64,000 bases of DNA from Gemmatimonadota bacterium (GTDB lineage: Bacteria > Gemmatimonadota > Gemmatimonadetes > Palauibacterales > KS3-K002): contig JBDHKD010000002.1 in assembly GCA_039586575.1 (NCBI GenBank), positions 1,128-65,127 of the forward strand, in the 5' to 3' direction. How positions within the stretch are numbered: position 1 is the stretch's first letter; every line of letters begins with the position of its first letter. Position numbers and translations under genes: made by a program. The notes under the pieces were generated by a model, which ran no database searches, had not been told where the DNA came from, and worked only from the letters and a program-made list of their open reading frames with translations. This document shows, in pieces, positions 36,001 to 63,275 of this stretch.

Positions 36001-36140
36001 GCTACGCCATCGTCGGCGGACTTTTGTTCTCCACTGTTCTGACCCTGTACCTGGTGCCCGTCGTGTACGTGCTCTTGGACGCGCTCAAGGAGCGGCTGGC
36101 GCGACGCGCACCCCAGCTCGAAACGGTTGAGGCACAATGA
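33075..36140 (+). CDS. RND superfamily efflux permease (AcrB-like), about 1021 aa
   Basis: TTG start at 33075 preceded by GGAGAA (ATG at 33121 is the alternative); 12-TM/2-loop organisation; motifs VVDDAIIVMEN and GAMPIALGLG. Confidence 0.9.
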   Translation: MKLSDTAIRRPVLAAMMSLALVLFGGIGYFRLPVREFPDVDAPIVSVTTVLRGANPRVIESTVTDILEEELSTIPGLRTLTSSSAEQVSNITLEFTLDRDIEASAQDVRDKVSRVRGRLPQEIEEPVVTKQDADAQPFFWLALTAENYDLLQLSDIGDREVKARLQTLPGVGRAQVFGERRYSMRIWLDPAELSARGLTVQDVEAAIRSRNVEIPAGRIESERREFTVRSLGELKTPDEFADLTVSSQGGQLVKLRDLARVELGPEDERSSLRFKGTSAVAIGVVRQSKANLIEVSDAIRGELPAINAALPPGVELEVAFDSSIFVRRSIQEAQETLLLAAVLVVLIIFFALRNLKATIIPALAIPTSIVAAFGLMYFFGFTINNLTLLALILSIGIVVDDAIIVMENAYRHQEELGEDPETAAIKGTREIAFAVIATTVALVAVFSPLAFLRGTTGRLFNEFGIAMAGAVVISSFIALTLTAMTSAKILRVPKSHGRIFMAFEKGFVGLSEGYGRSLVWALKRRWWVVGGAVGAVLLAIVVFRALEREFVPPEDRGWFVVITVAPEGATLAYTDGYQQQIEGVLGRTEDIEAYFSVVGFGGRVNSGIIFTRLTDWEERDRSVQEIIGEIQPQFFGIPGVFAFANNPPAFGFGSPVQFVVRHPDFDSLGAGMERLVPRARSINGLINIDTNLRVNKPELTVSYDRDRAEDLGVQIRDVSGALQTLLGSRRVSTFTRANKLYDVIVQLDPEARATPGQMTDLYVRGRDGALIQLDAVTRVEEGVGPRQLNHFNRVRSFTLTANLAPGFALGEALDSLSVASAEVLPPGSSIALAGESRELEESGNALYFAFVLALIVVYMVLAAQFESLLHPFTVLLSVPLAVTGALLALLLAGSTLNLYSQIGMILLIGIVSKNSILLVEYANQLKAKGMASAEAMLESGRIRLRPILMTATATVFGAMPIALGLGAGSASRRPLGYAIVGGLLFSTVLTLYLVPVVYVLLDALKERLARRAPQLETVEAQ

Positions 36141-38975: not shown

Positions 38976-39767
38976 TTACAGAGGTCTGCCCAGTCGGTCT
39001 TCCAGCGCCTGCCGACGGCTGCGGCTCAGCTTGAGCTCTGTCCCGTCCTTCAGCAGGATCATGTAGTCGCCGTGGAAGTAGGGGTGCAGCTCCTTGATGC
39101 GCTCGAGGTTGACGATGGAAGAGCGGTGGGTGCGGGCGAACTTGGAGGGATCGAGCTGCTCCTCGAGGCGCTTCATCGTGTCGCGCAGCAGGTGGGTGTT
39201 GCCGCCGACGTGCAGCCGTACGTAATCGCCTTCCGCTTCGATCCAGTCGATCTCATCTACCTTGAGGAAGACAACCCGGCCGGCCGTCTTGAGCATCACC
39301 CGCTGCAGATACCCGGAAGGCAGCGGGCGCCCCGCGGCGACACCGGCCTGACTCTCCAGGAGCGCGATGAGCTGGCGGCTCAGCGCTCCGACAGCGCCCT
39401 CGCGGATCTGCGTCTTCGCGCGCGTCACTGCCGTCGCGAAGCGCTCGTCATCGTACGGCTTCAGCAGGTAATCGAGCGCCGCCACGTCGAACGCACGCAG
39501 TGCATACTGATCGTAGGCCGTCACGAAGACCACCACAGGCATCTCGTCGGCACCGACCTCGTCGATGACACCGAATCCGTCGAGTTCGGGCATTTGCACA
39601 TCGAGGAAGACGAGGTGGGGCGCGAGCTCACGGATTGCCTCGACCGCCTCACGGCCGTCGGCGCACTCGCCGACCACCTCGATCTCGGGATCGTTCGCCA
39701 GCAGCACGCGGAGCCCCTCGCGGGCGACCGGCTCGTCGTCGACGAGCAGCGCTCTGATCGTCTGCAT
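38976..39767 (-). CDS. LytTR-family two-component response regulator (REC + LytTR DNA-binding), 263 aa
   Basis: REC acidic pocket LLVDDEP and phospho-Asp in VFLDVQMP; C-terminal LytTR (…ETHRSSIVNLERIKEL…). Confidence 0.85.
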   Translation of the reverse strand: MQTIRALLVDDEPVAREGLRVLLANDPEIEVVGECADGREAVEAIRELAPHLVFLDVQMPELDGFGVIDEVGADEMPVVVFVTAYDQYALRAFDVAALDYLLKPYDDERFATAVTRAKTQIREGAVGALSRQLIALLESQAGVAAGRPLPSGYLQRVMLKTAGRVVFLKVDEIDWIEAEGDYVRLHVGGNTHLLRDTMKRLEEQLDPSKFARTHRSSIVNLERIKELHPYFHGDYMILLKDGTELKLSRSRRQALEDRLGRPL

Positions 39768-39771
39768 CCCG

Positions 39772-40905
39772 CTAGGCCTCGCCCTTCACATCCTCGGCGG
39801 CGAGCCGGAAGGGAAGCTCGAGCGCCGCGGTAACACCACCGCCTGCGGCGTTCTCGATCACAAAGCTGTGGTCGCTGCCGTAGAGCTGCTCGAGCCTCTG
39901 CTTGGTCGTTGACAGGCCGACACCATTGCCGCCTGGCTCTTCGAGCCACTCGGGCAGCCCGGGGCCGTCGTTCCAGACCGAGAGGTGGAGCCGCTGACCG
40001 TCGCGCCGGGCGGCGATCCGCAGCGTTCCAGCCGCCGAGCGCGGCGCGATGCCGTGCTGGATCGCGTTTTCCACCAGCGGTTGCAGAATCAGGTAGGGAA
40101 CTTGCGCCTCCTGAGCCCCGTCATCGATACTCAGCTCCACCTTCAGTCGCTCGCCGAAGCGTATCTGCTCGATCTCCAGGTAACGCCGGATGAACTCGAG
40201 TTCCTGCTTGAGAGGCACGACTTGTGACCCGGCGCTGTCCAGCGCCCGCCGCAACAATTCACCGAGCCCGGTCACTACCCGCACGGCCTGCGCCTTCCTC
40301 TCGGTCCGCACGAGCACGGCGATCGTGTTGAGTGCGTTGAAAAGGAAGTGCGGATGCAGTTGTGCCTCGAGCGCCTGTATGCGTGCCTCGGCAAGCTGTG
40401 TCTCCAGCTGTGAGGCCCGCAGCTCTCGCTCGCGGCTTTCCCGATAGTGCTGTACGAGGTAGGCCAGGCCGACGATGATCCAATACAGGAGGGGATCGAA
40501 GTGGAGGAACGCGACGAACGTCATGAGCGACATCTGCAGGAGAACGCCGGTGCCGGTGTCGATCTGGCCCAGCGCCTGACCGGCGTACACCCATGCCATG
40601 CTACCGATCCACGATACCAACAGACTGGCGACCAGGTGGACCGCGAGGCTGGGAGCCCACCGGTCGCGCCGGAAAGGGAAGCGCACCTTCAGCCAGAGGA
40701 TGACCGGTGTGAAGAGCGCCCAGGTAGAGGTCCAGGCCAAGTACCAGATCAGCGAGTCGGAAAGCGGGAAGTCGCGCCCGAGGAAGCGGTAGCGGATGTA
40801 AAGGTCACCAGCGACCAGGGCGCCGAAGAGGGTCCAGACGCCGATGATCAGCAGCCAGCGCGCCGAGCGCCGGCTGAGCAGCTCTTCCAGGTTTCCGATT
40901 CTCAA
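39772..40905 (-). CDS. LytS/YehU-type sensor histidine kinase (polytopic sensor + His_kinase/HATPase), 377 aa
   Basis: Five to six N-terminal TM helices; H-box QLHPHFLFNALNTI; HATPase N, G1 and G2 boxes (LVENAIQHG…DGPGL…GGNGVGL). Confidence 0.8.
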   Translation of the reverse strand: MRIGNLEELLSRRSARWLLIIGVWTLFGALVAGDLYIRYRFLGRDFPLSDSLIWYLAWTSTWALFTPVILWLKVRFPFRRDRWAPSLAVHLVASLLVSWIGSMAWVYAGQALGQIDTGTGVLLQMSLMTFVAFLHFDPLLYWIIVGLAYLVQHYRESRERELRASQLETQLAEARIQALEAQLHPHFLFNALNTIAVLVRTERKAQAVRVVTGLGELLRRALDSAGSQVVPLKQELEFIRRYLEIEQIRFGERLKVELSIDDGAQEAQVPYLILQPLVENAIQHGIAPRSAAGTLRIAARRDGQRLHLSVWNDGPGLPEWLEEPGGNGVGLSTTKQRLEQLYGSDHSFVIENAAGGGVTAALELPFRLAAEDVKGEA

Positions 40906-41128
40906 TCGCGGACCGGTCTTGATCGCACGGCGAGGGGCCTACCCCGAGCGGCATAGTAAGCATGGCGCGGCCAGCCCGGCAACCGTTGTGCGGCAGACCG
41001 TAGCCTCGACGCGACGAAACGGGTTGGGGCGCGTCTAAGCGCGCCGGAGCCTTGACGGGCACGCCGCGGCGCGTGACGTTTATCCCTCTCTCAGCACCTC
41101 AATCTGCCCTGTCGGAAAGGACCAGACG

Positions 41129-42100: not shown

Positions 42101-42712
42101 CTAACGCGCCGCGTCGAACCGCTTCGCCACCTCGTCCCAGTTGACCGTGTCGAACCAGGCCTCGATATAATCGGGTCGCCGGTTCTGATACTTCAAGTAG
42201 TAGGCGTGCTCCCATACATCGATCCCGAGGATCGGCCTACGCCCCTCGGTGAGTGGGCTGTCCTGGTTCGGGGTGCTTTCGACGACCAGCTTCCCCTTCG
42301 GGTCCACCGAGAGCCACCCCCAGCCGCTGCCGAAGCGCGTCGCCGCCACATCACCTAGCTGCTGCTTGAAACTCGCGAAGTCGCCGAACGCCGCGGCTAT
42401 CGCGCCGGCCAGCTCGCCCGTCGGCTCGCCGCCGCCACCCGGGCCCATAATCGACCAGAAGAGCGTGTGGTTCGCGTGACCACCACCGTTGTTGCGGACC
42501 GCGGTCCGGATGTCCTCCGGCACCTCACTCAACTGTGCCAACAGCTTCTCGACCGGCCAATCGGCCAGCCCCGCGTGCTTCTCTAGCGCCCCATTCAGCT
42601 TGGCGACGTAGCCCGCATGGTGCTTGCCGTGGTGGATCCGCATCGTCTGCTCGTCGATATGCGGCTCGAGCGCCTTGTAGTCGTAAGGGAGCGGGGGAAG
42701 TTCGTGAGCCAT
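42101..42712 (-). CDS. Fe/Mn superoxide dismutase, 203 aa
   Basis: ATG at 42712 preceded by GGAGGAAAA RBS; metal ligands and signature (HHGKHH…[18 protein letters not shown]). The 421-aa ORF in the track is an N-terminal over-extension. Confidence 0.9.
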
Positions 42713-43016
42713 TTTTCCTCCTATCACGGGTGGGGCACCTTTCGGATAACACGAGAAAGATACTGCGAAAGAGGGGTGGTTCAACGTGGCGATTGCAGCG
42801 CGCCTTCCGCGGCCTTGCGAAATGCGACTGTTTTCGGTATATGTTCGGGTCACCGTACTACAGGGGGACGCAGGCGATTTCGGAGTCTGGTCGCGCTGGC
42901 CGCCCTTGTCCTGGCCTTGGGGGCGGGCGGCTGCGGTCGCGGTGAGCAAGCGGTCGACGAAGCGGTAGTACTGTCGGCCGATCCCATCGTCATCTCCAAA
43001 CCAAACGAGGGCACGA

Positions 43017-43378
43017 TGTTTGTTGGTCTGAGAACCGTCGTCTACCAGGTCGACGATCTGGAGAAGGCGAAGGAATGGTACGGCCGGGTCTTGGGATTCG
43101 AGCCGTACTTCGACGAGCCGTTCTACGTCGGGTTCAACGTGGCTGGGTTCGAGCTGGGGCTGCATCCGGCCGAGAAAGACGCGCCCCTCGGAGCCGGGGG
43201 TACGCTCGCGTATTGGGGAGTCGAAGATATCGTAGCGGTGATGGCCAGGTTGGAAGAGCTGGGCGCCCCGGTGCACAGCGAGATTCAGGATGTCGGCGAA
43301 GGGATCTTGGTGGCCTCGGTGATCGATCCGTTCGGCAACCTGGTGGGGATCATCCAGAACCCGCATTTCGGGAACTAG
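43017..43378 (+). CDS. VOC (glyoxalase I / bleomycin-resistance) family protein, 120 aa
   Basis: ATG at 43017 with GAGGG RBS; VOC beta-alpha-beta-beta-beta pattern (…[23 protein letters not shown]…[31 protein letters not shown]). Confidence 0.6.
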
Positions 43379-43382
43379 CGAG

Positions 43383-44063
43383 TCACAGTCCCCACTCCCA
43401 GAAGCTCGGGCCGATGCGCAGGTTGTGCAGCCACTCGGGCGGCCACCAGTATCTCAGTAGCACAGCGAGCCAACCGTGTGAGAGCGCCAGGGTGATCAGG
43501 TTGGGGTGCCGCTCGAACAGGCGGCACCAAACGTAGCCTCCCACCAGGGTTAGCGCCGCCAGGGCCAGGTTCGGCCAATGGAGGGAAGCGAAGAGAGCAG
43601 CCGTGATCGCCGCCGTCGGTGCCGGCCGCCCAACAGCTTCCCGTAGCCGGCGATAGGTGAACGACTGCATAGCGAACTGCTGGGCGAGCCCCCAGAACGG
43701 GTAGAGAAGGAACGGGCCGAGCATACCGCGGTGCCAAGTGGGCCCGGCTCCGGTCGCCCAGCCGATGGCCAGCACAGCTATCGCCCCCACCAGAGTCGCC
43801 AGTCCTACCTCACGGGCTGAGATCCCCAGGTTGTCCAACCGGAGGCCGAGGTCCCGCAGCCGGTCCCTGTGAAGAACCGCGGAGGCGAAGGGGATGAGCA
43901 CGATCAGGGTCATGAACGGGATGCGAAGCCAGTCGTTGTGCGTCGGTTGAAGTACCCAGACGTAGACCAGGCCCAGGCCCACGAAGACCAGCGGCTCTCC
44001 GACCGAGCGCGCTTTGGCGCGACCACTTAGGGTGGATAGGCTCTCTACTTGGCGTCTGTCCAT
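43383..44063 (-). CDS. CPBP-family (CAAX/Abi-like) intramembrane metalloprotease, 226 aa
   Basis: Six TM helices; C-terminal CPBP motifs (…[15 protein letters not shown]… and …[11 protein letters not shown]…); the first EExxxR motif appears degenerate. Confidence 0.55.
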
Positions 44064-51891: not shown

Positions 51892-53871
51892 ATGCCTGAG
51901 GAAGAACGCAACCGTCTGCTGCAACGCTTGGAAGCGTTGGAGCGTCAGGCGCAGCGCTTCGATATCGAGCTGAGGCGCCTGCGGCATGACGTAGAGCGCC
52001 ACAGCACCAGCCCCGCAGTCGCGGAAGTCAGGGCGCCCGGCCTTCGGGCCCGCGAGGCGGTGCCCCCGGAACCTCCTCCGACGCCGGCTCCGGTCGCCGG
52101 CGTGTCGGACGAGCCGCGCCGGCGGCGGGCAGTCGAAATCGAGTTCTGGCTCGGCGGGCGTGGTCTGCTACTGCTCGGTGTCCTCGCTCTCGTCTTCTCC
52201 GTCGGGTTCTTCGTCAAGGAAGCGATCGAGAGAGGCTGGATCGGTCCGGCTGTGCGAGTGCTCCTCGGCATCGCCGTCGGCATGGCGGCCGTGGGTGTGG
52301 GAGAGCGACTACGGGCCGTCGGATACCGGACCTACGGGCTCTGGCTCGCCGCCGGCGGCTTCGGCGCCATCTACCTCAGCATCTGGGCGGCCGCGGCGCT
52401 CTATGCGCTCGTGCCCGCCGCGTGGGGCTTTCTTCTAATGGTTGCGGTCGTCGTTGCGGCGGCCGCCTTGGGGCTGCTCCGCGCCTCCGAGTCCTTCGTC
52501 GCTTTGGCTGCGTTCGCTGGCTACCTGGCGCCGCTGCTGATACAGGTCGATACCGCCTCCAACCTCTTCGCCCTCGGCTACCTCGGTCTCCTCTCCGGCG
52601 CCGGCCTCTGGGTCTCCTTCCGGGCGCGCTGGCAGGGGCTGGCGGCGGTCGCCGTTCTCGGCGGCTCGCTGCTCTCGCTGACCGGTGTCGGTGACCCTTA
52701 TCTGCACGGGGCCTATCTGGCGATACTGGTCACGGCGGCGATGGTCGTCGCCAGGCTGAGACACTGGCCCGAGGTATCGCTCCTGACGATCGCACTCGGT
52801 TGGACCGTTCTGGCGGCCGGGCACGGGAGGTGGGAGCTGACCGGGCTCAAGCTCTCGTCCCACGCCGCCTGGCTGTGGTTAGCCAACCTCATCGGGTCGG
52901 TCGGTGTGACTGCCGGGTACAGGCCCGAGGCGGCTGATAGCAAGTCGTGGGTGGCCGCCGACACGCGCCAGTCGTTCGCCGAGGTGAGTGGTCTGGCGGT
53001 CACGCTCTTACCGCCCTGGTTGTTCCTGATCCTCGCGATGGCCGGGCTGGGCGATTCGACCTACAGCGGGTCGCGCGACGTTGTAGGGTTCGCTTTGGGT
53101 ATCTTCACCGGCGCCGTCTACCTCACCCAGTCGATCCTGATCCGCGCCGATGGCGAGCCACGGCGTTGGCCCTGGGCTGTATACCTCGGATACGCCCTCT
53201 GGATCGTGGCGCCTTGGATACTCTGGGACGGTGCTTCGTTGGCCCGGGTCTGGTTGCTCGAGGGCGCCGTACTCACCGGCGCCGGCGTCGCTCTGAGGTC
53301 CCTGGAAGCACGCTCAGCTGGCCTGGCTGCCTTCGCAGTCGCTGCCTTGACGTACTCGGCTGCAGCGGTCAACCGTCCGGATCTCGATCCGGCCTTCTTC
53401 AGCGTGTGGGCGCTCACCGGTCTCGCCTCCGCGATCGCGCTCGCCGCCTGGGGGCTGGCTCTCGAGCTGCTGGATGAACCCGCGGCCTGGGAAATCGGCC
53501 TCCGACCCGTCCTGATGCTGTTCTCCGCTCTCCTGTTCCTGAGTTGGGGAACGCTGGAGATCCAGCGGTTCTTCGAGCTGCTCGCTGATGATGGCCGCTG
53601 GAATCTCGCCCGCGACCTCTCGATCAGCGGATTCTGGATCGCTTACGCCGTCGCGCTGCTCACCGCTGGCTTTTGGCTGAAGCGCGCTCCCGTGCGTTGG
53701 GCCGGCCTCGTCATGGCGCTCATCGCTGCCGCCAAGGTCTTCCTTTATGACCTGTCGCAGCTCTCCCAGTTGTATCGCATTCTCAGCTTCGTGCTGCTTG
53801 CGGTGGTTCTGCTGGCGCTCTCGTTCCGCTACCAGAAGCTCCGCCGGACCGAGGAGGAACCGAAGTCCTAG
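51892..53871 (+). CDS. DUF2339-like large polytopic membrane protein with N-terminal coiled coil, about 660 aa
   Basis: N-terminal coiled coil (LLQRLEALERQAQRFDIELRRLRHDVER), then about 15-18 hydrophobic helices; ATG at 51892 preferred over TTG at 51838. Confidence 0.55.
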   Translation: MPEEERNRLLQRLEALERQAQRFDIELRRLRHDVERHSTSPAVAEVRAPGLRAREAVPPEPPPTPAPVAGVSDEPRRRRAVEIEFWLGGRGLLLLGVLALVFSVGFFVKEAIERGWIGPAVRVLLGIAVGMAAVGVGERLRAVGYRTYGLWLAAGGFGAIYLSIWAAAALYALVPAAWGFLLMVAVVVAAAALGLLRASESFVALAAFAGYLAPLLIQVDTASNLFALGYLGLLSGAGLWVSFRARWQGLAAVAVLGGSLLSLTGVGDPYLHGAYLAILVTAAMVVARLRHWPEVSLLTIALGWTVLAAGHGRWELTGLKLSSHAAWLWLANLIGSVGVTAGYRPEAADSKSWVAADTRQSFAEVSGLAVTLLPPWLFLILAMAGLGDSTYSGSRDVVGFALGIFTGAVYLTQSILIRADGEPRRWPWAVYLGYALWIVAPWILWDGASLARVWLLEGAVLTGAGVALRSLEARSAGLAAFAVAALTYSAAAVNRPDLDPAFFSVWALTGLASAIALAAWGLALELLDEPAAWEIGLRPVLMLFSALLFLSWGTLEIQRFFELLADDGRWNLARDLSISGFWIAYAVALLTAGFWLKRAPVRWAGLVMALIAAAKVFLYDLSQLSQLYRILSFVLLAVVLLALSFRYQKLRRTEEEPKS

Positions 53872-54066
53872 CCAAGAGCTGAACAGCGACCTGCGCGAAG
53901 GAGCTTCGAGCCAGCTAACGCACTACATATCATAGCGTTATCGATCCGATCCGCCTGCGGGCGCCAGCCCACCGCGTCGGTAAACATTTTACGTCAAAAT
54001 GAAAACAGTAATCGGTCAGTATGTCCGGGCCGATCGTAAGTCGTTGTCGCGTCGTCCGCTCTTCGT

Positions 54067-54082
54067 TGGCACGAAGATGGCA
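54067..54082 (+). promoter_or_regulatory. Possible sigma-54 -24/-12-like element TGGCAC-GAAGA-TGGCA, embedded in CTTCG/CGAAG/CTTCG inverted repeats
   Basis: GG-N10-GC spacing correct, 58 nt upstream of the first pilin gene; one mismatch to consensus TTGCA in the -12 box. Confidence 0.25.
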
Positions 54083-54139
54083 CTTCGCCCGATGCCCAGA
54101 CCCGCCTCACACGTTGGCGAAAGAAGCGTAGAGGTAACC

Positions 54140-54565
54140 ATGACGACGCTTGCATGTAAGCGCGGTTACACGATGGTCGACATGGCCGTCGTCCTGCTGC
54201 TGATCGGGGCCGCTATGGGCACGACCGGGCCCCTGAGCCGGCGGATGGTCGCGCTGTACCAGCTGAACACGTCGGCGCAGACGTTGGCGGCGGATCTGTC
54301 ACAGGCTCAGATCCGGGCGATCCAGTCGAACGCGATGGCGGCCGTGACACGGGAATCGCATCGGGACTACCGGGTGGCGGGGTATCCGCGGCGGCTGCCG
54401 GGGATGGTGCGGTTCGATGGTGAGAGCGCCGAGTCGGTGACGTTCAACGGCTTAGGCGCGATGAGCGACGGAGCCACGCACCGGTTTATCCTGACCAACC
54501 TGTTCGGAGAGTCGCGAGAGATCGTGGTGTACGCGGCCGGAGGACACGAGGTACGCAAGCTGTGA
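54140..54565 (+). CDS. Type IV pilin-like protein, GspH/FimT-type pseudopilin, 141 aa
   Basis: Class III signal: MTTLACKRG|YTMVDMAVVLLLIGAAMG (Asp at +5); GspH-like body (…LSQAQIRAIQSNAM…); GAGGTAA RBS. Confidence 0.6.
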   Translation: MTTLACKRGYTMVDMAVVLLLIGAAMGTTGPLSRRMVALYQLNTSAQTLAADLSQAQIRAIQSNAMAAVTRESHRDYRVAGYPRRLPGMVRFDGESAESVTFNGLGAMSDGATHRFILTNLFGESREIVVYAAGGHEVRKL

Positions 54566-54966
54566 GGACTAGTGGATTCAGTCTGGTCGAATTGATGGTC
54601 GCGCTGGTGATCTTCGCCTTTGGCGTGCTGGCCGGCGTGGCGCTCTTGGGTTCCGGCTACCGTTGGGAGGGGCAGGCCGAGCTGGAGACGCAGATTACGG
54701 TTGCGGCTGAGATGAAGATCGAGGAACTGAAAGCGGTGGCCGGGACCAACCTTCCGGATACGGTACAGCTGGTCCCGGGTGGGAACCTCGAATCGAACGA
54801 GAGCGGATACTGGGACACAGCCGATGTAGACGGACGGATCTTCACTCGACGCTGGCGGGTCCAGGCAGGGCCGGCGGGGACAAGGCAAGTGACGGTAAGG
54901 GTACTGCCCTTGGATCCGCCCGCGGCGGGTGAAGCCGAGATTTGGACGCATATCCTCCATGAGTAA
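54562..54966 (+). CDS. Type IV minor pilin PilV-like, 134 aa
   Basis: MRTSG|FSLVELMVALVIFAFG canonical prepilin motif with Glu+5; ATGA overlap with upstream gene. Confidence 0.6.
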   Translation: MRTSGFSLVELMVALVIFAFGVLAGVALLGSGYRWEGQAELETQITVAAEMKIEELKAVAGTNLPDTVQLVPGGNLESNESGYWDTADVDGRIFTRRWRVQAGPAGTRQVTVRVLPLDPPAAGEAEIWTHILHE

Positions 54967-55567
54967 CCAGGGTGCGACGAACCGCATGCGGAGCTCGGCG
55001 GCTGGCTTCAGCACGATCGGCATGATCGTGGCGATCATGTTGCTCGGTCTGATGCTGGCGCCGATGCTCGGAACGATCGTCAGCGCACAGCGTGGCTTCG
55101 TGGCGAGCCGGGATCGGGCACGTGCGGCCGGCAGCGTGCGCTACGCACACCTCTCGTTGACCCGGTTCATGCGCCTGGCCGGCAGCAGCCCGCTGGGCTT
55201 GCCGCTGCCGGGTATCGATCCCGATCCGGATGGCGATGGCGTGTTCAACGACGTTCGCCTGCGCTCGGACTACAACCCGCCGGATGGTGACATCGATGAT
55301 CCGGGCGAAGACCTGACTTTCTTTCTGCGCGCCGACACGATGTACGTGAAGACGGGAGCCGGCGACACGGAAGAGCCTTACCTGATCGGCGTCGACTCGC
55401 TGGCCTTCGACTACTTCGACCGCGACGGCGCGCTGATCGTCGATCCGAGTCGTGTGCCGACGCGTGCTATCTCCGCCAGCGTGACCATCCGCGGACGGGG
55501 CGACCGGTACGTTGATCCGTCGGAGCGCACCCTGGCCGGGCTTGTCCGCCTGCGAAACGGGAAGTGA
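54959..55567 (+). CDS. Type IV minor pilin PilW-like (Gly at +5 instead of Glu), 202 aa
   Basis: …RSSAAG|FSTIGMIVAIMLLGLML prepilin-like leader and helix; ATGAGTAA overlap with upstream gene. Confidence 0.5.
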   Translation: MSNQGATNRMRSSAAGFSTIGMIVAIMLLGLMLAPMLGTIVSAQRGFVASRDRARAAGSVRYAHLSLTRFMRLAGSSPLGLPLPGIDPDPDGDGVFNDVRLRSDYNPPDGDIDDPGEDLTFFLRADTMYVKTGAGDTEEPYLIGVDSLAFDYFDRDGALIVDPSRVPTRAISASVTIRGRGDRYVDPSERTLAGLVRLRNGK

Positions 55568-56877
55568 TGGCTATGCGGAACCCACTGCGATCGAACCAAT
55601 CGGGAATGGCGTTGCTGGCGGTGCTGCTGGCCATGGCCCTGCTCACCGCGTTGGGTGCGGCACTCACCGCCGTGGGGATCGTCGAATTCCGCGCCGCCAA
55701 GAATCACCGCTCGGCCGCCCGTGCTCTGCTGCTGGCCGACGCCGGCGCCACCCATGCGCTGGCGCTCATGCGTGGTCCGATGGCCGTCTACAGCTACTCC
55801 GACGTGCTGATCGGCGCGGATGGGGTGGCGGACACCGAGGATGACGGGATCTTCTCCGGGTACGCGCTGGACGCGGCCGACGCGCTGCCGGACACGGGCA
55901 TCCTGCTGGGTGATGGCCGCTACTACGTGCGGATCGTGAACGACGATGGGGATCCCAGCGGTGATCCCTACGACGACGACAATCACCGCTTCGTGGCGCT
56001 CTGCCGCGGCGAGACCCCCGACGGCGGGATGGCGGAAGTGCGGGTCATGCTGGCCGCGCCGAGTTACCCGGCCATCGCGACGAACGGCACGCTGTACCTC
56101 CCGGGCAACCCCGAGGTTCTCGGGCCCTGTGGCGGCGTGCACGCCAACCGGGTCGTTTCGGTCAGCGGGCACCCGGTGGTGAGCGCCGGTGTGACGGCCA
56201 GCGATACGGTCATCGTGAGCGGAACGATCTACGATCCCTATGGCAACGTCGTGCAGCCGGAGTATGCGCCACCGGTGGAACTCCCCTACTATGATCCGCT
56301 CGACTATTGCCAGGATGCCGACTACCGCCTCAAGAACAACAAGCTGATCGTGGTGGGGCCGCCGCAGAGCGAGTACACTCTCGGCAAGGTGCTCGGTTGG
56401 CAGTTCGTGGCGTCGACCTGGACGTACGAGCTGAACGGCAATGAGGCTGTCGGGGGCAAGTACTGTGTCCAGGGCAACGTGCAGATCGTCGGCAACCTGG
56501 GTGAGCCGGGCAATCCGCTCGATATCACCATAATCGCCACGGGCTCGATCCAGGTGGGCGGCGTGCCGATCATCGAGCCCGCCCACGACGGCGAGATCCT
56601 GTTGCTCGCTGGCGGCGACGTACAGATCGGCGGCACGACGACGGCAAAGCGATCGCCCTACTACGCGGGCCTCATCTACGCCGGCAGCCAGTGCCAGGTG
56701 GGCGGTACGCCGGTCGTCGACGGCAACGTCCTGTGCTACGATGCGCAGGACCCGGAAGGTGCCGTAGACCTCTTCGACGAGAACAAGATCAACGGGACTC
56801 CCAGGATCTCCGCCGATTGCTCTGGGGAGCGGCGGCGCACGCTCGTCGCGTCCTGGTGGGAGTCGCGCACGTCGTAG
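55567..56877 (+). CDS. PilX_N-domain minor pilin with about 300-aa Cys-containing, Gly-rich repeat extension, 436 aa
   Basis: …NQSG|MALLAVLLAMALLTALGAAL (PilX N-terminal pattern); C-terminal region with repeats GNVQIVGNLG / GSIQVGGVPI / GDVQIGGTT and 7 Cys; TGATG overlap with PilW-like gene. Confidence 0.6.
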   Translation: MAMRNPLRSNQSGMALLAVLLAMALLTALGAALTAVGIVEFRAAKNHRSAARALLLADAGATHALALMRGPMAVYSYSDVLIGADGVADTEDDGIFSGYALDAADALPDTGILLGDGRYYVRIVNDDGDPSGDPYDDDNHRFVALCRGETPDGGMAEVRVMLAAPSYPAIATNGTLYLPGNPEVLGPCGGVHANRVVSVSGHPVVSAGVTASDTVIVSGTIYDPYGNVVQPEYAPPVELPYYDPLDYCQDADYRLKNNKLIVVGPPQSEYTLGKVLGWQFVASTWTYELNGNEAVGGKYCVQGNVQIVGNLGEPGNPLDITIIATGSIQVGGVPIIEPAHDGEILLLAGGDVQIGGTTTAKRSPYYAGLIYAGSQCQVGGTPVVDGNVLCYDAQDPEGAVDLFDENKINGTPRISADCSGERRRTLVASWWESRTS

Positions 56878-56904
56878 ATCGGATCCCAGACAGGACGACC
56901 CCCG

Positions 56905-58242
56905 ATGACCCGCCCACGGACGATCCGACAAATATCGCGAACCCGGGTGCGGGACGATAGATCTGGGATCGCTCTGCTGACGGTTCTGTTGGCCATGGCG
57001 CTGCTTACCGTGATCGGCGCCGCGCTCGCCGCCATCGGCATCGTCGAGTATCGCAAGTCCCTCAACCATCGCTCCGCGACCCGCGCGCTGCTGCTCGCCG
57101 ATGCCGGTGCCAGCCACGTGCTGGGGCTGATGCGCGGGCCACTGAGCCACTTCACCTACAGTGACGTTATCAGGGGGGACGACCGGGCTCCGAACACGCA
57201 GGATGACGGTGTGCTGGCGGGCTTCGGGCTCGACGCGTTCGATGAGCTGCCCGACACCGGAGTCGTGCTGGGCCTGGGCCGCTACTTCGTTAGGCTGGAG
57301 AACGACGCCGCTGACCCCAGCGGCGACCCATCTACCGACTCCAATCACAGGGTCGTCGCGATCTGTCGCGGCGAGCTGCCCGACGGCGGTGTCGCGGAGG
57401 TCCGCGCGATACTCGCCGCGCCGAGCTTCCCGGCCATCGTCAGCAACGGAGACCTCACGTTGCCCGGCAACCCGGAAGTGCTAGGACCGTGCGCAGGCGT
57501 TCACGCCAACGGCGACCTGAGGGTCAGCGGGCATCCGACCGTGGATGGAGAGGCGACGGCGTCCGGCGAGTTGATCTTGAGCGGCACGATCTACGACGCG
57601 AACGGCAACATCGTGGTTCCGCGCTACCAGCAGCAGATGGAGGTCCCCCAATACAGCTTGCAGAGCTTCTGCGCAGACGCCGACTACGAGCTCCTCGATG
57701 GCTATGTGGTCGCCGCGGGTCCGCCACGCCAGAGCACCCTGGCCACCGGCAACGGACACCTGGGCTGGAAGTGGAACGCGAGCCAGGGTACGTGGAGCCT
57801 ATCGGGTAGCGAGGCGGTTTCCGGCACTTACTGTGTGCACGGCAACGTATCGGTGACCGGCAACATCGGGAGTGACGGTGCGCCGCTGCAGATCTCGATC
57901 CTGGCCAGCGGGTCGGTCCAGGTGGCGGGGAACCCGAAGATCGAGGCCGACCACCCCGACGGCGTCCTGATCCTGGCCGAAGGCGACGTGCAGATCGCTG
58001 GCAACGCCTCGGGGATGACGCTCTCCTACGCCGGCCTGGTCTACGCCGGCAGCCAGTGCGAGGTCAACGGCACACCCAGCGTTGGGGGGCATGTCATGTG
58101 CTACGACGATCCCGACCCGCTGGGCGCCACCAATCTCGTTAGCGAGAACAAGATCAACGGGACTCCCGAAGTCACCTACGACTGTACGGGCGAACGGCGC
58201 CGCACCCTGATGGCGACGTGGTGGGAGTCACGAGCACGATAG
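56905..58242 (+). CDS. PilX_N-domain minor pilin paralog (tandem duplicate of the preceding gene), 445 aa
   Basis: …DRSG|IALLTVLLAMALLTVIGAAL; about 60% identical and co-linear with the previous protein, including all 7 Cys and the shared C-terminal CxGERRRTLxAxWWESR. Confidence 0.6.
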   Translation: MTRPRTIRQISRTRVRDDRSGIALLTVLLAMALLTVIGAALAAIGIVEYRKSLNHRSATRALLLADAGASHVLGLMRGPLSHFTYSDVIRGDDRAPNTQDDGVLAGFGLDAFDELPDTGVVLGLGRYFVRLENDAADPSGDPSTDSNHRVVAICRGELPDGGVAEVRAILAAPSFPAIVSNGDLTLPGNPEVLGPCAGVHANGDLRVSGHPTVDGEATASGELILSGTIYDANGNIVVPRYQQQMEVPQYSLQSFCADADYELLDGYVVAAGPPRQSTLATGNGHLGWKWNASQGTWSLSGSEAVSGTYCVHGNVSVTGNIGSDGAPLQISILASGSVQVAGNPKIEADHPDGVLILAEGDVQIAGNASGMTLSYAGLVYAGSQCEVNGTPSVGGHVMCYDDPDPLGATNLVSENKINGTPEVTYDCTGERRRTLMATWWESRAR

Positions 58243-58340
58243 ACCCGCCAAGTTCTGGAGTCAGACGTCAACCCAACAGACGGCGAGCGCCGGACCGGCG
58301 CTCGCCGTCGCGCATCTTGCAGGCCATTTGCCAACGGAAG

Positions 58341-59798
58341 TCAGGACCGCAGCATCTCCGACCAGCGAAGTGTCGGACCTATCAGAACGGGAATACTCTC
58401 GCTCCGAGCCTGGTACATGGCAGTGTCGGCTTCGATGACCAGGCGCTCGACGATTCTCGGGAAGTCGGGAAAACCCAAATCCATCGGTGAGACGTCGTCC
58501 GCCTCCAAGGTGACGAGGCCGATCGTCGTCTTGATCGGCGGTATCCCCTTCGGCCACGAGCGGGCCTGCTCGCCGGCCAGCGCCGATCGGATGCGATTCG
58601 CGACTACCCCGCCTCCCTCGGGGTTGGCATCGATGAGAACGATTAGGAACTCATCCCCACCGAAGCGGCCTACGACATCCGAATCCCGCACGCAGCGCTT
58701 GAGCAGGCTGCCCATGTGCCTGAGCGCGCGGTCACCGACAACGTGCCCGTGCTCGTCGTTCAGATTCTTGAACTTGTCGATGTCGAGCATCGCCACCGTG
58801 ACGGGAAACGCCTTGCGCCAGGCCAACTTGAGCGACTCGCGCAGGCGTTCCATCGTGAATTGCTTCTGGTAGACCCGCGTTGTCGTGTCGACGGTGGCCA
58901 GTTCGTACAGTGCGGCATTACGGATCGCCGCAGCGGCCTGGCTGGCGAAGACCTGAAGAAGATCGATGTCACGCTCGCCGATGCCCGGCTTGTTGAGATA
59001 GGCCAGTCCCAGGACGTGGTCTGCCAGCGTGAGTGGCAATACACCGTGATCGTCGTCGATGATGTTGCTGCGCTCTTCGACTGCCCGCCGCATCAGCTGG
59101 TCGGGGACCGCTCTGAGTTTGTTGATCGAGGCGCCGCGCGGGTAAGAATCGCTGCTGGCCGCGGCGACCACGTAGTCATCGACGCTCTGCGGAGAGTATA
59201 TGAAGCCTTCGATGCTCGGCTTGCCGACCGGGTCGCTCAGCCGCGCGGCGACAAACGCGCTCTCGCCGCCCATCAGCCGGCTGACCTCGTCCAGGATCGT
59301 CTCCGTAACATCCTCGAGCGACTGGATCTGGTGTAGTTGGGGTACTGCTTCCAGGACCCGCCTTAACCCTTGGCGTGAGCGCCGGATCATGTCCAGCTGC
59401 TGCGCCGCCTGCAGGGCGGCGTTCACCCAGAGCCGCAGGCCCTGCTCACCGTGACCTTTGTCGTGATAACCATAGGCCTTGTGCTCGCGGGTTACCCGGC
59501 TAAAACGTCCTCCCGGAGCGCCGTTGCCCATGAGCACGATGGGTGCTCCCGGAGCCAGCTCCCGCAAGTCGGCCAGCGGGTCGGCGCCGTCGATCTCCAG
59601 CAACGCCAGCTCGACCAGTAGCGCGTCGGGCAGATGGTCGGCCAGAAAGCTCGCGGCAGCGATGAGGTCCTCGACTCCCCAAACGCAATGGCCCTCCTCG
59701 GCGATGTGGCCGCAGCTTCGACTGAGGAAGTCAGGGTCGCTGTCGATGAGCAGAACGCTGAGTCCCTGCTTCGCGCGATTGCGACGCAGAAGGGTCAT
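58341..59798 (-). CDS. Receiver-like (REC) - GAF - GGDEF protein (response-regulator-type diguanylate cyclase), 485 aa
   Basis: N-terminal REC-like fold (VLLIDSDPDF…ALLVELALLEIDG), central GAF, C-terminal GGDEF with intact RFGGDEF and upstream I-site-like RxxD. Confidence 0.8.
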   Translation of the reverse strand: MTLLRRNRAKQGLSVLLIDSDPDFLSRSCGHIAEEGHCVWGVEDLIAAASFLADHLPDALLVELALLEIDGADPLADLRELAPGAPIVLMGNGAPGGRFSRVTREHKAYGYHDKGHGEQGLRLWVNAALQAAQQLDMIRRSRQGLRRVLEAVPQLHQIQSLEDVTETILDEVSRLMGGESAFVAARLSDPVGKPSIEGFIYSPQSVDDYVVAAASSDSYPRGASINKLRAVPDQLMRRAVEERSNIIDDDHGVLPLTLADHVLGLAYLNKPGIGERDIDLLQVFASQAAAAIRNAALYELATVDTTTRVYQKQFTMERLRESLKLAWRKAFPVTVAMLDIDKFKNLNDEHGHVVGDRALRHMGSLLKRCVRDSDVVGRFGGDEFLIVLIDANPEGGGVVANRIRSALAGEQARSWPKGIPPIKTTIGLVTLEADDVSPMDLGFPDFPRIVERLVIEADTAMYQARSESIPVLIGPTLRWSEMLRS

Positions 59799-59977: not shown

Positions 59978-60976
59978 ATGATCGAGATGCGAGCCGTGGT
60001 TTTCAGGCAGCCGGGAGGCCCAGAAGTCCTTGAGATTCAACGAGTTGCGGCTCGAGAACCGGGCCGGGGCGAGATCCGGGTCCGTGTCCACGCCGCCGGT
60101 GTCAATCGCGCCGACCTCCTGCAACGTCGAGGCCTCTACCCGGCGCCGCCGGGCTGGCCGGCCGAGATCCCTGGCCTCGAGTATGCCGGCGTGGTCGAGG
60201 CCCTGGGCGAAGGGGTCGAGCTGTGGGACGTAGGGGACCGCGTGATGGGGCTGGTTGGGGGTGGCGGCTATGCGGAATACGTGGTGGTGCCCGAGCGCGA
60301 GGCGATCGCGGTACCCGCGTTGCTGTCGCTGGAGGAGGCGGCGGCGGTCCCCGAAGTGTTCATCACAGCCCACGACGCTCTCTTTAGCCAGCTACATCTG
60401 GAGCTAGGCGAGCGACTTCTGATCCACGCGGTGGGCAGCGGTGTCGGGATTGCCGCCTTGCAGCTGGCGAAGGCTGTGGGCGCTACGGTGATCGGAACGT
60501 CGCGCTCCGAATGGAAGCTGGAGCGCGCCACTGATTTCGGTTTGGACGTCCTCATCAACACGGCCAGCCATGACTTCTCCCTCATGGTCGAGCAAGCGAC
60601 GGCCGGCCAGGGCGTCGACGCCGTTCTCGACCTTGTCGGTGCTCCCTACCTGGCCGGCAATCTGCTTTGCCTGGCGGAGAAGGGCCGGATCATCGTCGTG
60701 GGGTTGACCGCCGGCCGCACGGGCGAGATCGACCTTGGTGTGCTGCTCCGCAAGCGCGTGCGTCTTATCGGGACTTCTCTACGCTTTCGTCCGCTGGAGG
60801 AAAAGATCGATGCGGCTCGGGCCTTCGATCACGACGTGGGTCCGCTGCTGGCGAGCGGGCAGATCCGTCCTGTCATCGACCGGGTCTTCCCACTCGAGGA
60901 GTCGGTCGAGGCGCATCGGCACATGGAGGCGAACCTCAACTTCGGTAAGTTGGTCTTGAAATTGCCCCTCAAGTGA
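59978..60976 (+). CDS. NAD(P)H:quinone oxidoreductase / zinc-independent MDR family (Qor-like), 332 aa
   Basis: MDR pattern: MRAVVF…GGPEVL, GxGxxG-like AVGSGVGIAALQLAKAVGA, C-terminal …GKLVLKL. Confidence 0.85.
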   Translation: MIEMRAVVFRQPGGPEVLEIQRVAAREPGRGEIRVRVHAAGVNRADLLQRRGLYPAPPGWPAEIPGLEYAGVVEALGEGVELWDVGDRVMGLVGGGGYAEYVVVPEREAIAVPALLSLEEAAAVPEVFITAHDALFSQLHLELGERLLIHAVGSGVGIAALQLAKAVGATVIGTSRSEWKLERATDFGLDVLINTASHDFSLMVEQATAGQGVDAVLDLVGAPYLAGNLLCLAEKGRIIVVGLTAGRTGEIDLGVLLRKRVRLIGTSLRFRPLEEKIDAARAFDHDVGPLLASGQIRPVIDRVFPLEESVEAHRHMEANLNFGKLVLKLPLK

Positions 60977-61072
60977 AGCCCAACTGATCCGCCGCCTCCG
61001 CCCCGCTTGGGAGGCGATTCGCGATCGGTCGTGAGATCGCGCAGCTCGCCGATGAGCGTGAAGCTGCGCACC

Positions 61073-61639
61073 TCAGCCGTCGGGTGGCGGCTGCCAGCCC
61101 GGCCTCGTCAACCGGGGTGAGTCAAGGTTGATCTGTTGCATCCGCGAGTCGGACTCGAACGCTGTACACTCGCTGATCGTGCCGTCGGCCTCGATCATCT
61201 TAGTCTTATCGTCGCTCCAGATCCTGTCTTCGGACGGCAGGTAGTACAGCACCGAAGTCTCCAATCGTCGGCCTTCGGCACGATTCACTACAACCACGTC
61301 TTCCCTGGCGGTCATGTCACCGGTGTCCCAGTCGTACGTACCCTCACGGGACGTGAGAACCGACGTCTCCTCACCGTCTTCGTTGTAGAAGGTGACCCTC
61401 AGAACACGCAGCTCGACTATCGGCCGATTTTCCAGAAGGAACGCCGTGTCGGCCTCGACGAGGGCGCGCCGTATCCCGTCCGCTGTCACGTTATTCTCGT
61501 AGCCGAAGGCGACCATGTTTGCGTCGGGGTTGAGCTGCAGGATATCCTCAGCTACTAGAGGTGGCTCACCGCTCTCACCACACGCCTGCGTATAGAAGAC
61601 CAGACAGAGCGCCGCTGCAACCCGAGCAGACGTGCTCAT
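61073..61639 (-). CDS. LptC/OstA-like fold lipoprotein (standalone), 188 aa
   Basis: ATG at 61639 gives MSTSARVAAALCLVFYTQAC lipobox; beta-jellyroll pattern reminiscent of LptC (…LRVLRVTFYNEDGEETSVLTSREGTYDWDTGDMTAREDVVVVN…LETSVLYYLPSEDRIWSD…). Confidence 0.4.
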   Translation of the reverse strand: MSTSARVAAALCLVFYTQACGESGEPPLVAEDILQLNPDANMVAFGYENNVTADGIRRALVEADTAFLLENRPIVELRVLRVTFYNEDGEETSVLTSREGTYDWDTGDMTAREDVVVVNRAEGRRLETSVLYYLPSEDRIWSDDKTKMIEADGTISECTAFESDSRMQQINLDSPRLTRPGWQPPPDG

Positions 61640-62010
61640 ACTACCCGCGCCCGCATCAGGGCCAGAGCTGAGCCCTTGACCGTCCACATCCGCCGCCACA
61701 CCCTCTTACAACGTGAACAACACATACGCCCTTAATCTAGCAGGGAGAGCGTCACGGTGAACGGTATCCGCCCCCCTTCGCGGGGAGGCATATTACAATC
61801 AGACTTCGGTAAGATCGTTCTCCGCCTCGAGGGCTAGCTCGGCGGGTGTCCGCCGGGCGCACACCTCGCGTATCCCTCCGACACAGGTGCCCGAGGAGAC
61901 TTTCTCCCCAATGGCCTAGCTCGCTCGCTCTCACCGTCCGAGGTGCGGCACCGGGCTTGCCATGATTCCCGACGAGGACCGTAGGCGGCGCTTGACCTCG
62001 ACGGGAGGGA

Positions 62011-62834: not shown

Positions 62835-63275
62835 CTACTTGTCCTTCTTGGTCATGGGCTCGCAGGCGATGACGCCTTCGGTCTGGGCCGGCTCGTACGG
62901 GTCAATCTCACCGATAAAGATTGCGCAGTAGAATCGGTCCGGCCGCCGCAGTTTGTGCTCGGCCCGGGCCGACCATCCCCTCTCATCGGCGCGCATCTTG
63001 ATCATCACGTTGGGGCTGGGTGTGAAATCGAGCCGATGCGTCTGGCTGGCGTAAGTGGCGCTTGCATCTTGGTTCGGGTCGTCTGCGAAGTAGCCGCCGG
63101 TAGAGGCGTGGTAGACTTCCTGTGCATGGGTCAAACTGCGTAGATCCGACTCCATCACCGCCAGATAGGCCGAGCTCTTGGCCCGCTGGAGGGTAGCCGA
63201 GCCCATGGCGGTGAGGATGGCGATGATGACCATGGCGAAGATCAGCTCGAGGATCGTGAACCCTCGAGATCTCAT
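62835..63275 (-). CDS. Type IV major pilin candidate (PilA/PilE-like), 146 aa
   Basis: AGGAGGG RBS; MRSRG|FTILELIFAMVIIAILTAMG canonical class III signal with Glu+5; C-terminal Cys pair (…FYCAIFIGEIDPYEPAQTEGVIACEP…) consistent with a D-region disulfide loop. Confidence 0.75.
   Translation of the reverse strand: MRSRGFTILELIFAMVIIAILTAMGSATLQRAKSSAYLAVMESDLRSLTHAQEVYHASTGGYFADDPNQDASATYASQTHRLDFTPSPNVMIKMRADERGWSARAEHKLRRPDRFYCAIFIGEIDPYEPAQTEGVIACEPMTKKDK

Follow-up and report, generated by a model that had tools for sequence, protein, structure and literature searches.

The window analysed here, a 64-kb stretch of DNA from an uncultured Gemmatimonadota bacterium, contains a genuine five-gene operon on its forward strand (positions 54140-58242, Table 1), downstream of genes encoding HAL, a Transgly_assoc protein and DUF2339. 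All five ORFs recognised in the initial annotation are present, each starting with a short, basic class III leader with Gly at -1, followed by a hydrophobic helix of about 20 uncharged residues. The position that had been given as the start of the operon, 54067, marks no start codon but belongs to a promoter-like element. The genes are tightly packed, as had been claimed, but the junctions are not all overlaps of 1 to 4 nts. The 4 nts shared by g1 and g2 read GTGA rather than ATGA, g2 and g3 overlap by 8 nts (ATGAGTAA), and a gap of 27 nts separates g4 from g5. The g3/g4 junction, GTGATGgctATG, offers three start options, the alternative starts of g4 lying at 55564 and 55567.

Table 1. Features of the minor pilin operon and its surroundings (positions in the window; the arrow stands before residue +1).
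Feature	Position	Strand	Description
Candidate activator (bEBP) binding block	53982-54052	+	CATTTT-N5-AAAATG dyad and CGGTCAG..TGTCC..TCGTAAGTCGTTG; 15-85 nts upstream of -24
Sigma-54-type -24/-12 element	54067-54082	+	TGGCACGAAGATGGCA; last base 58 nts before the g1 ATG
g1	54140-54565	+	141 aa; GspH/FimU-class minor pilin; leader MTTLACKRG↓YTMVD
g2	54562-54966	+	134 aa; PilV/GspI-class minor pilin; leader MRTSG↓FSLVE
g3	54959-55567	+	202 aa; GspJ/PilW-fold minor pilin; leader ...SSAAG↓FSTIG
g4	55573-56877	+	434 aa; ComZ-like tip pilin, PilX_N/GspK-like domain and beta-solenoid; leader ...SNQSG↓MALLA
g5	56905-58242	+	445 aa; ComZ-like tip pilin paralogous to g4; leader ...DDRSG↓IALLT
Hairpin	58279-58309	.	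14-bp, GC-rich; separates g5 from the convergent GGDEF gene; probable terminator in both directions
Separate pilin	62835-63275	-	146 aa; G↓FTILE, C-terminal Cys pair; outside the operon; candidate filament subunit

Downstream of g5, the convergent regulator described in the initial annotation is a GGDEF gene, which faces the operon across the hairpin. Folding of the RNA from 58240 to 58345 gave -43.9 kcal/mol (z -3.3), and a consensus terminator scan does not call the hairpin because it has no U-tract. Because the hairpin and the convergent gene follow g5, the operon transcript cannot run on past it, which speaks against a pilY1 downstream on the same transcript. The absence of PilY1 was likewise borne out within the window, which contains neither a gene of that size nor a Pfam match (PF05567, about 1000 aa, searched among ORFs of at least 250 aa). 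The GGDEF gene is syntenic in related loci; however, unrelated genes are equally syntenic.

Upstream of g1, the sigma-54-like sequence TGGCAC-N5-TGGCA that had been pointed out is present, strongly conserved and position-specific. The sigma-54 consensus is close to TGGCAC-N5-TTGCW, with GG at -24 and GC at -12, from which TGGCACGAAGATGGCA departs by one mismatch. An exact match to this sequence occurs once in the window, where chance would give 0.08; the element is invariant in 13 aligned upstream regions. In 16 of 19 related Gemmatimonadota loci, TGGCAC-N5-TGGCA is found 70 to 119 nts upstream of g1, while the element ends in TGGCG in the remaining three; only two other matches occur in 319 kb. 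Sigma-54 control of the operon is thus supported by the conservation of the element upstream of g1 in the 19 related loci, and no sigma-70-like promoter was found between 53700 and 58500. The nested inverted repeat CTTCG/CGAAG/CTTCG said to surround the element is indeed found in the window, but the orthologous loci do not conserve it. The block located further upstream is present in 11 of the 13 aligned orthologous regions and, because of its position relative to the sigma-54-type promoter, was read as a candidate bEBP binding region. No sigma-54 activator gene (Sigma54_activat/bEBP) was found in the window with Pfam. Together, the conserved element and the upstream block provide a testable handle on the regulation of the operon.

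Weak matches to HMMs, the order of the genes and the folds predicted for their products suggest the classes assigned to g1 to g5. Among the HMM searches that had been proposed for each ORF, those with g2 passed the N_methyl thresholds (PF07963, 28.5 bits for a cut-off of 21.2; TIGR02532, 22.2 bits for a cut-off of 16.3) and also gave a match below cut-off to the PilV model TIGR02523 (E=1.2e-7), whereas g1, g3, g4 and g5 reach no curated threshold. N_methyl scored 13 bits with g4 and did not match g1, g3 or g5. For g1, all matches are below cut-off: Pfam GspH (PF12019, E=0.014, 16.3 vs 21 bits, covering profile positions 2-108 of 108), TIGR01708 GspH (9e-5, 22.5 vs 80 bits) and Verru_Chthon D (4e-5). 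When aligned by hhalign with E. coli GspH and PpdA, only its N-terminus aligns. The first gene of distant cassettes matches GspH, and g1 is likewise the first gene of its cassette. The structure model of g3 has a GspJ/PilW-type fold, with TTHA1219, a Thermus type IV-like pilin, as its best solved match. These assignments agree with the minor-pilin operon of order H-V-W-X-X' that had been claimed.

As initially annotated, PilX is followed by a second, long paralogue; g4 and g5 are 59% identical over their full length. Their N-termini match GspK, PilX_N and Verru_Chthon-A weakly; with PilX_N (PF14341), g5 reached 16.8 bits for a cut-off of 25.5 and g4 gave no match. In the 33-member family alignment that includes g4 (A1), PilX_N matches 19 members (best E 8.8e-10) and DUF7305 matches 16. 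The model of g5, taken to represent the g4/g5 family, predicts a GspK-like pilin domain fused to a large extra domain, a triangular beta-solenoid resembling ice-binding proteins, and its best solved match is Thermus ComZ. In the DSSP assignment, the pilin strands (120-171) are followed by the solenoid (178-424) and by a final strand (435-442). This topology, read from the order of secondary structure elements, would place the final strand after the solenoid, as in ComZ and the cyanobacterial PilX. A search of all PDB sequences with the A1 profile gave no match, even at E<=10; the relation of g4 and g5 to ComZ rests on predicted structure because ComZ is not detectable by sequence. Both proteins are strongly acidic (pI 4.4-4.6), their solenoids having a pI of about 4.2 with 6-10 K+R vs 27 D+E. 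All Gemmatimonadota members of the family are still annotated as hypothetical proteins.

A six-frame motif scan of the 64 kb found class III N-termini only in g1 to g5 and in the separate pilin; because there is only one further such N-terminus, the cluster of pilin leaders is not due to chance. The Gly at -1 does not vary in any of the orthologue alignments (A1-A5), and the leaders are conserved across 19-21 orthologous loci, reading G↓Y(N/H)..D for g1 (E replacing D in two loci), G↓FS.VE for g2 and G↓F..(I/L)G for g3 (A replacing the final G in one locus). Hence the unusual leaders that had been noted in the first three genes are conserved in orthologues, but a Tyr at +1 is already found in E. 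coli PpdA. At +5, Glu is found in g2 only, the other residues being Asp in g1 (Glu in two orthologues), Gly in g3, Ala in g4 and Thr in g5. An acidic residue is absent at this position from three of the five subunits, the PilW/GspJ-class protein and both caps. A missing Glu5 is unremarkable in the cap class but unusual in the PilW/GspJ class: the residue is present in E. coli GspJ and in four distant cassettes. Gly5 is conserved in 20 of 21 g3 orthologues. The Gly at +5 of the PilW-like protein, the Tyr+1/Asp+5 of g1 and the presence of two cap genes per operon are clade-specific.

The resemblance to Gsp proteins raises the question of whether g1 to g5 could encode the pseudopilus tip (GspH-I-J-K) of a T2SS, or of another non-extending pseudopilus, with the remaining genes elsewhere in the genome. 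The best weak NCBIfam matches of g1, g3, g4 and g5 are indeed the GspH, XpsI/GspJ and GspK models, GspJ and GspK are among the structures matched by the folds of g3 and of the g5 pilin domain, and some g3 homologues were named 'pseudopilin PulG' by JGI. However, the equivalog scores (13-22 bits) are far under the cut-offs (80-160 bits), with GspH at 22.5/80, XpsI at 16.7/150 and GspK at 19-21/130, and the GspJ/K-like folds do not discriminate because Thermus minor pilins structurally resemble T2SS pseudopilins (PMC6561018). Pseudopilin genes normally lie inside a gsp operon, but gspG is absent upstream and Pfam searches found no gspC-F/L/M in the 64 kb. Within the 64 kb, the outcome that would have reassigned the genes, HMM evidence for T2SS pseudopilins near gsp genes, was not obtained, with scores below cut-offs and no gsp Pfam match. 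In addition, ComZ, whose solved structure shows the same two-domain design, is part of a type IV pilus system, the genes of disulfide-bearing T4a-type pilins, with a sigma-54-like promoter, lie nearby, and a bulky solenoid of about 250 residues would be odd on a periplasm-bound piston. A T2SS-type pseudopilus is hence improbable.

The operon is likely to encode a complete core minor pilin set for a type IV filament, most likely type IVa, in which H, V and W subunits are shared by two solenoid caps. Type IV pilus genes have been reported in Gemmatimonadota genomes (PMC10581226). It had been stated that PilE is missing; none is present in the operon, but the opposite strand carries two pilin genes further downstream, at distances of 4.6 kb and about 9.5 kb. 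The separate pilin scores 27.3 bits with N_methyl, above cut-off, and is syntenic in several related loci, and a sigma-54-like element of its own accompanies a neighbouring gene for a classic T4a pilin. No pilB/C/D/M-Q/T was found in the window or up to 4 kb beyond, and no A24 prepilin peptidase in the window. Next to one distant H-V-W-X cassette lie genes for an A24 prepilin peptidase, a PAS histidine kinase and a sigma-54 response regulator, and further distant cassettes have the same gene order.

In the proposed mechanism, the sigma-54 holoenzyme, together with a PilR-like activator sitting on the conserved block upstream, would transcribe g1 to g5 as one mRNA, and a prepilin peptidase encoded elsewhere would cut the products after the conserved Gly. 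The subunits would form an inner-membrane complex priming the polymerisation of a major pilin, for which the two downstream genes are candidates, and this complex would travel to the distal tip, with g4 or g5, devoid of Glu5, as terminal subunit. The solenoid would then point along the fibre axis and may play the part of PilY1 in Proteobacteria, as tip plug or cap and as adhesin or receptor. The suggestion that an enlarged PilX may take over the role of PilY1 fits the predicted ComZ-like beta-solenoid. The two cap paralogues would most likely constitute alternative tips on one shared H-V-W base.

The lack of an acidic +5 residue in three subunits and the presumed co-transcription of two cap genes with one H-V-W set could also be read as signs of a rewired, double-headed and PilY1-free tip of new stoichiometry, whose top layer would hold both caps alongside the PilW-like protein, in place of two alternative single-cap tips; this reading seems quite unlikely. 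If it were true, the tandem duplication of the cap gene, which arose independently in at least three lineages (that of the window, L027 and L028), would point to a selected two-cap architecture. Evidence for distinct specificities of g4 and g5 is weak because only three positions show fixed differences between the two orthologue groups. Why this clade lost Glu5 from its PilW-like protein, and why the cap gene was duplicated repeatedly, are concrete questions for modelling the assembly of tip complexes.

A further possibility is that the operon encodes a dedicated competence pilus or pseudopilus, like that of Thermus comZ-pilA1-3, with the solenoid caps as receptors of DNA in natural transformation and not as adhesins or plugs on a pilus used for motility or adhesion. 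Both g3 and g5 have Thermus type IV-like pilins as their best solved matches, ComZ is needed for competence and binds DNA (PMC6561018), and, of the two cyanobacterial core sets that include a solenoid PilX, one functions in competence (bioRxiv 10.64898/2026.02.12.705559). The strong acidity of g4 and g5 argues against such a function, the DNA-binding lysines of ComZ cannot be mapped on them because they have no sequence similarity to ComZ, and no comEA/comEC/dprA-like Pfam match was found in the window. The convergent GGDEF regulator would rather fit surface or biofilm behaviour, with the reservation already made about its synteny. A competence role is accordingly considered unlikely, and a type IV filament with two solenoid caps remains the preferred reading.

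The initial annotation regarded the complex as lineage-specific. This does not hold, since the same cassette is widespread in metagenomes and the solenoid-PilX design has been published (PMC6561018; bioRxiv 10.64898/2026.02.12.705559). The operon is most likely a fresh example of a known design and not a new system. With it, the use of a beta-solenoid PilX/ComZ cap instead of PilY1 would now extend to a third, poorly studied phylum, Gemmatimonadota. The H-V-W-X(solenoid) cassette, of four genes, occurs often in metagenomes (468 clusters at 50% identity, E<=1e-30), which supports the view that PilY1-free solenoid-capped filaments are widespread and not a peculiarity of Thermus and cyanobacteria.

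Among characterised systems, the P. aeruginosa fimU-pilVWXY1Y2E operon has the same order of classes (H/FimU, V, W, X) and the same presumed priming and tip role. The operon described here differs by the absence of PilY1, PilY2 and PilE, by a PilX about twice as large with a predicted solenoid, by a PilW without Glu5 and by its sigma-54-type promoter. Unlike the genes of the T2SS GspH-GspI-GspJ-GspK tip (3CI0, 5VTM), it does not form part of a gsp operon; the insert of GspK is alpha-helical and placed at another point in the fold (PMC6561018), whereas that of the g5 model is a beta-solenoid. Like the present operon, the Verru_Chthon cassette (TIGR02596/02598/02600) is a stand-alone set of genes for pilin-like proteins that includes a single, very large protein of PilX_N type; its protein A has about 1300 aa. 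The matches of g1, g4 and g5 to its models are weak, however (22-26 bits for cut-offs of 70-332), and limited to the N-terminal 57-59 residues.

In T. thermophilus, the replacement of PilY1 by a solenoid PilX was proposed in 2019 (PMC6561018). The g5 model appears to share its architecture, a pilin domain and a solenoid, with ComZ (6QVI) of the comZ-pilA1-pilA2-pilA3 locus (PMC6561018). The predicted solenoid is shorter (about 250 residues vs about 380 in ComZ), and two cap genes are present instead of one, Gly5 sits in the PilW-like subunit and control looks sigma-54-dependent. In addition, ComZ acts in DNA uptake, whereas any role of the present caps is putative. In cyanobacteria, the beta-solenoid PilX, reported to have its solenoid inserted before the last beta-strand, was proposed to provide the 'plug' in organisms that lack PilY1 (bioRxiv 10.64898/2026.02.12.705559, 2026 preprint). 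These sets, from a different phylum, likewise comprise a PilA9/FimU-like subunit, PilV, PilW and a PilX with an apical ice-binding-like solenoid, and their genomes carry PilX in more than one paralogous form. However, each cyanobacterial PilX subfamily has its own PilV subfamily in a separate set, whereas here two PilX share one H-V-W set within a single operon.

The reading best supported for the five-gene minor-pilin operon g1-g5 is that of a sigma-54-controlled set encoding the complex that primes a type IV filament and forms its tip. The five same-strand ORFs with prepilin-type leaders described in the initial annotation were all recovered. Each starts with a basic leader up to a Gly and continues with some 20 hydrophobic residues that carry no charge, and a six-frame scan of the 64 kb for the prepilin signature returned only these genes and a stand-alone pilin gene. 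The 4-nt overlap of g1 and g2 reads GTGA instead of the ATGA previously claimed, g2 and g3 overlap by 8 nt (ATGAGTAA), g3 and g4 overlap or lie 5 nt apart according to the g4 start chosen, and a gap of 27 nt separates g4 from g5. G+C content is 61-68% across the window and composition is unbroken at the operon.

Features of the minor-pilin operon and of the neighbouring pilin genes (window positions unless stated; L001, deposited contig near-identical to the window)
Feature	Position	Strand	Basis or description
Conserved upstream block, ~70 nt	53982-54052		15-85 nt upstream of the sigma-54 element
Sigma-54-type element	54067-82		TGGCACGAAGATGGCA, upstream of g1
g1	54140-54565	+	ORF listing and direct reading
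g2	54562-54966	+	ORF listing and direct reading
g3	54959-55567	+	ORF listing and direct reading
g4	55573-56877	+	ORF listing and direct reading; further possible starts 55564, 55567
g5	56905-58242	+	ORF listing and direct reading
Hairpin 3′ of g5	58279-58309		14-bp, GC; RNA fold
REC-GAF/DUF3369-GGDEF diguanylate cyclase gene	58341-59798	-	convergent with the operon, beyond the hairpin
Stand-alone pilin gene, 146 aa	62835-63275	-	G|FTILE, Cys117/Cys138 pair
Second, classic T4a pilin	L001 19404-19847	-	just past the window end; G|FTLIELLIVVVIIGLLAAIALP, C-terminal Cys pair

Downstream of g5, the 106-nt stretch containing the hairpin folds at -43.9 kcal/mol (z -3.3). Because this hairpin and the convergent GGDEF gene follow g5, the transcript cannot reach a pilY1, in agreement with the earlier claim that the operon lacks one. 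The operon and the GGDEF gene face each other convergently in all related loci. c-di-GMP may be linked to the pilus, but the unrelated neighbours HAL and ADH are equally syntenic.

Upstream of g1 lies TGGCACGAAGATGGCA; the window contains no other exact match to TGGCAY-N5-TGGCA, and 0.08 would be expected. A looser pattern allowing one mismatch occurs at chance level, therefore the case for this promoter rests on its conservation. The sigma-54-like element first noticed in this one sequence is unvarying across 13 aligned upstream regions; the regular expression matches 70-119 nt before g1 in 16 of 19 loci, the other three differing in the last base alone, and has just two further matches in 319 kb. 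The conserved upstream block, shared by 11 of the 13 aligned loci, includes a CATTTT-N5-AAAATG dyad as well as a CGGTCAG half-site and, from its position at the usual place of activator sites, is a candidate activator binding site. The promoter scan found no sigma-70-like promoter in 53700-58500. The CTTCG/CGAAG/CTTCG inverted repeat, also pointed out initially, was set aside as it is unconserved among orthologous loci.

The caps g4 and g5 share 59% identity. In the g5 model (pLDDT 89.6), an N-terminal helix of 58 residues is followed by a small beta-sheet, many short strands over residues 178-424 and a last strand at 435-442. The sole significant Foldseek match in the PDB was ComZ, a competence pilin of Thermus thermophilus (E 1.3e-11), with ice-binding proteins ranking next. 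In ComZ, an FfIBP-like triangular beta-solenoid interrupts a GspK-like pilin domain just ahead of its final strand; ComZ carries Gly at position 5 and was argued to fit at the pilus tip only (PMC6561018). The g5 model is predicted to share this combination of a GspK-like pilin domain and an ice-binding-protein-like solenoid. ComZ was undetectable by sequence when PDB sequences were searched with the g4/g5 family profile. Within that family, 19 of 33 members match PilX_N and 16 match DUF7305. The names found in the sources are only "hypothetical protein" and, occasionally, "PilX N-terminal domain". Both caps are strongly acidic (pI 4.4-4.6), which makes a role as DNA receptors less attractive.

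HMM searches gave g2 scores above the N_methyl thresholds and a sub-threshold PilV match, in line with the PilV-like label of the initial annotation. The GspH assignment of g1 was recovered in kind, but all its matches (Pfam GspH over the full profile length, TIGR01708 and Verru_Chthon protein D) are sub-threshold. Membership of a Verru_Chthon cassette was ruled out by the HMM scores. Profiles of g1, g2, g3 and g4/g5 matched PDB sequences over the N-terminal helix only, or not at all. Similarly, in hhalign comparisons of orthologue profiles with E. coli GspH, GspI, GspJ and PpdA, only the leader and first helix align, hence no class is assigned from hhalign. The HMM matches, the g5 model and its ComZ match together identify the operon as an H-I-J-K core set (GspH/FimU, PilV/GspI, PilW/GspJ and PilX/GspK classes) in which the K-class cap is duplicated and enlarged by a solenoid.

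Invariant Asp-rich loops occur in g3 (residues 87-118, window ~55217-55312; DPDPDGDG...DYNPPDGDxDDPGED), whose structure model was built with database homologues, and in g4/g5 (residues ~133-147; NDxxDPSGDPxxDxN). Judged by their motifs, these loops resemble DxDxDG-type calcium sites, and GspK, GspG and PilY1 are known to bind calcium.

Orthologues of g1 share G|Y, three loci having N or H, with Asp at +5, or Glu in two, while those of g2 retain G|FS(L/I)VE and those of g3 retain G|F..(I/L)G except for a single Ala. In the caps and their orthologues, the +5 residue is never acidic. Tyr at +1 is also seen in E. coli PpdA (G|YTLIE). Glu5 is present in all H, V and W genes of four distant cassettes and likewise in E. 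coli GspJ, so its loss in the PilW-like g3 is clade-specific.

An exact-protein look-up found an identical g5 protein on a 136-kb contig (JBDHJE010000001.1) of the Gemmatimonadota MAG GCA_039587075.1. Across 21 Gemmatimonadota loci, including four closed MAG chromosomes and 'Ca. Kutchimonas denitrificans', the common order is HAL - Transgly_assoc - (DUF2339) - g1 - g2 - g3 - g4 - (g5) - GGDEF (convergent) - ADH. CP070815.1, CP070812.1, CP070823.1 and CP070722.1 are complete MAG chromosomes with the operon. Both cap genes are kept in twelve genomes and a single one in several; a neighbour-joining tree, drawn without support values, places g4-type apart from g5-type genes, with some single-copy genes outside both. 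Only three sites are fixed and different between g4 and g5, so sub-functionalisation is unsupported by this crude test. An exhaustive profile search returned 468 clusters (50% identity) at E<=1e-30 and 1215 at E<=1e-10. The cap gene comes last in the same four-gene cassette in all five distant members on long contigs, after a GspH-match gene (~140-240 aa), an N_methyl gene (~135-150 aa) and an N_methyl/PpdB gene (~190-210 aa), the X gene itself encoding 440-505 aa. The cassette of JGI 3300048101 (P0238) is flanked on one side by an A24 prepilin peptidase and a PAS histidine kinase, and on the other by a second, divergent minor-pilin set and a sigma-54 response regulator. Two distant loci, L027 (8283-11329) and L028 (10001-12933), have their own tandem cap pairs, with 64% and 68% identity within the pair and only 33-38% to other lineages, implying at least three independent cap duplications.

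The stand-alone pilin gene lies 4.6 kb downstream of the operon, keeps its synteny in several related genomes and may encode a filament subunit. A sigma-54-like GGGCAT-N5-TTGCC lies some 75 nt before the second pilin start (near L001 19920-19940), which suggests a regulon common with the minor-pilin operon. A BNR-repeat protein beside this second pilin (L001 18187-19107) was rejected as a PilY1-like propeller, because its 306 aa contain Asp-box repeats but neither a signal nor a pilin N-terminus, and its Pfam matches are only faint.

A Pfam scan of window ORFs of >=250 aa and several shorter ones detected Rho, a Ser/Thr kinase, an ATP-dependent DNA ligase, ceramidase, SOD and metabolic enzymes, and no pilus or secretion machinery, PilY1 or sigma-54 activator; no pilus genes were seen among the downstream genes visible in L001. 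The window also carries two RND efflux systems (88-3234 and 32940-38517, both +), the second a full AcrB-OEP-HlyD set adjoined by a LytS-type kinase/LytTR regulator pair (38976-40938, -). The 450-codon stop-to-stop frame at 42101-43453 (-) has Fe/Mn superoxide dismutase domains in its last ~200 residues only, and either its true start is far downstream or it has an unusual N-terminal extension. The window and L001, the 136-kb contig with the identical g5 protein, are 99.9% identical, with ~850 bp extra in the window at 60950-61798, a segment containing an LptC-related ORF (61073-61699, -; Pfam E 2e-9); the window therefore derives from a very near relative or from a different assembly. The ADH-to-OMP interval differs in length among related loci.

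The operon could instead encode the tip of a type II secretion pseudopilus. This is improbable, since the operon stands alone, T4a-type pilins are close by, the cap is of the ComZ type and type IV pilus genes have been reported in Gemmatimonadota (PMC10581226). In the favoured reading, a type IV priming and tip complex, g4 or g5 would be the terminal subunit, without Glu5, and its solenoid would fill the capping and adhesin role held by PilY1 in Proteobacteria. Beyond the fold, gene order, leaders and promoter conservation, we infer the steps of this mechanism. A solenoid in the PilY1 role was previously proposed for ComZ (PMC6561018) and for cyanobacterial PilX (bioRxiv 10.64898/2026.02.12.705559). 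The operon is real and the initial reading of it largely right, but the solenoid-cap design has been described before, from two other phyla, and metagenomes commonly contain the cassette. What is peculiar to the clade is the Gly5 of the PilW-like subunit, the Tyr1/Asp5 of the GspH-like subunit and the presence of two caps per operon.
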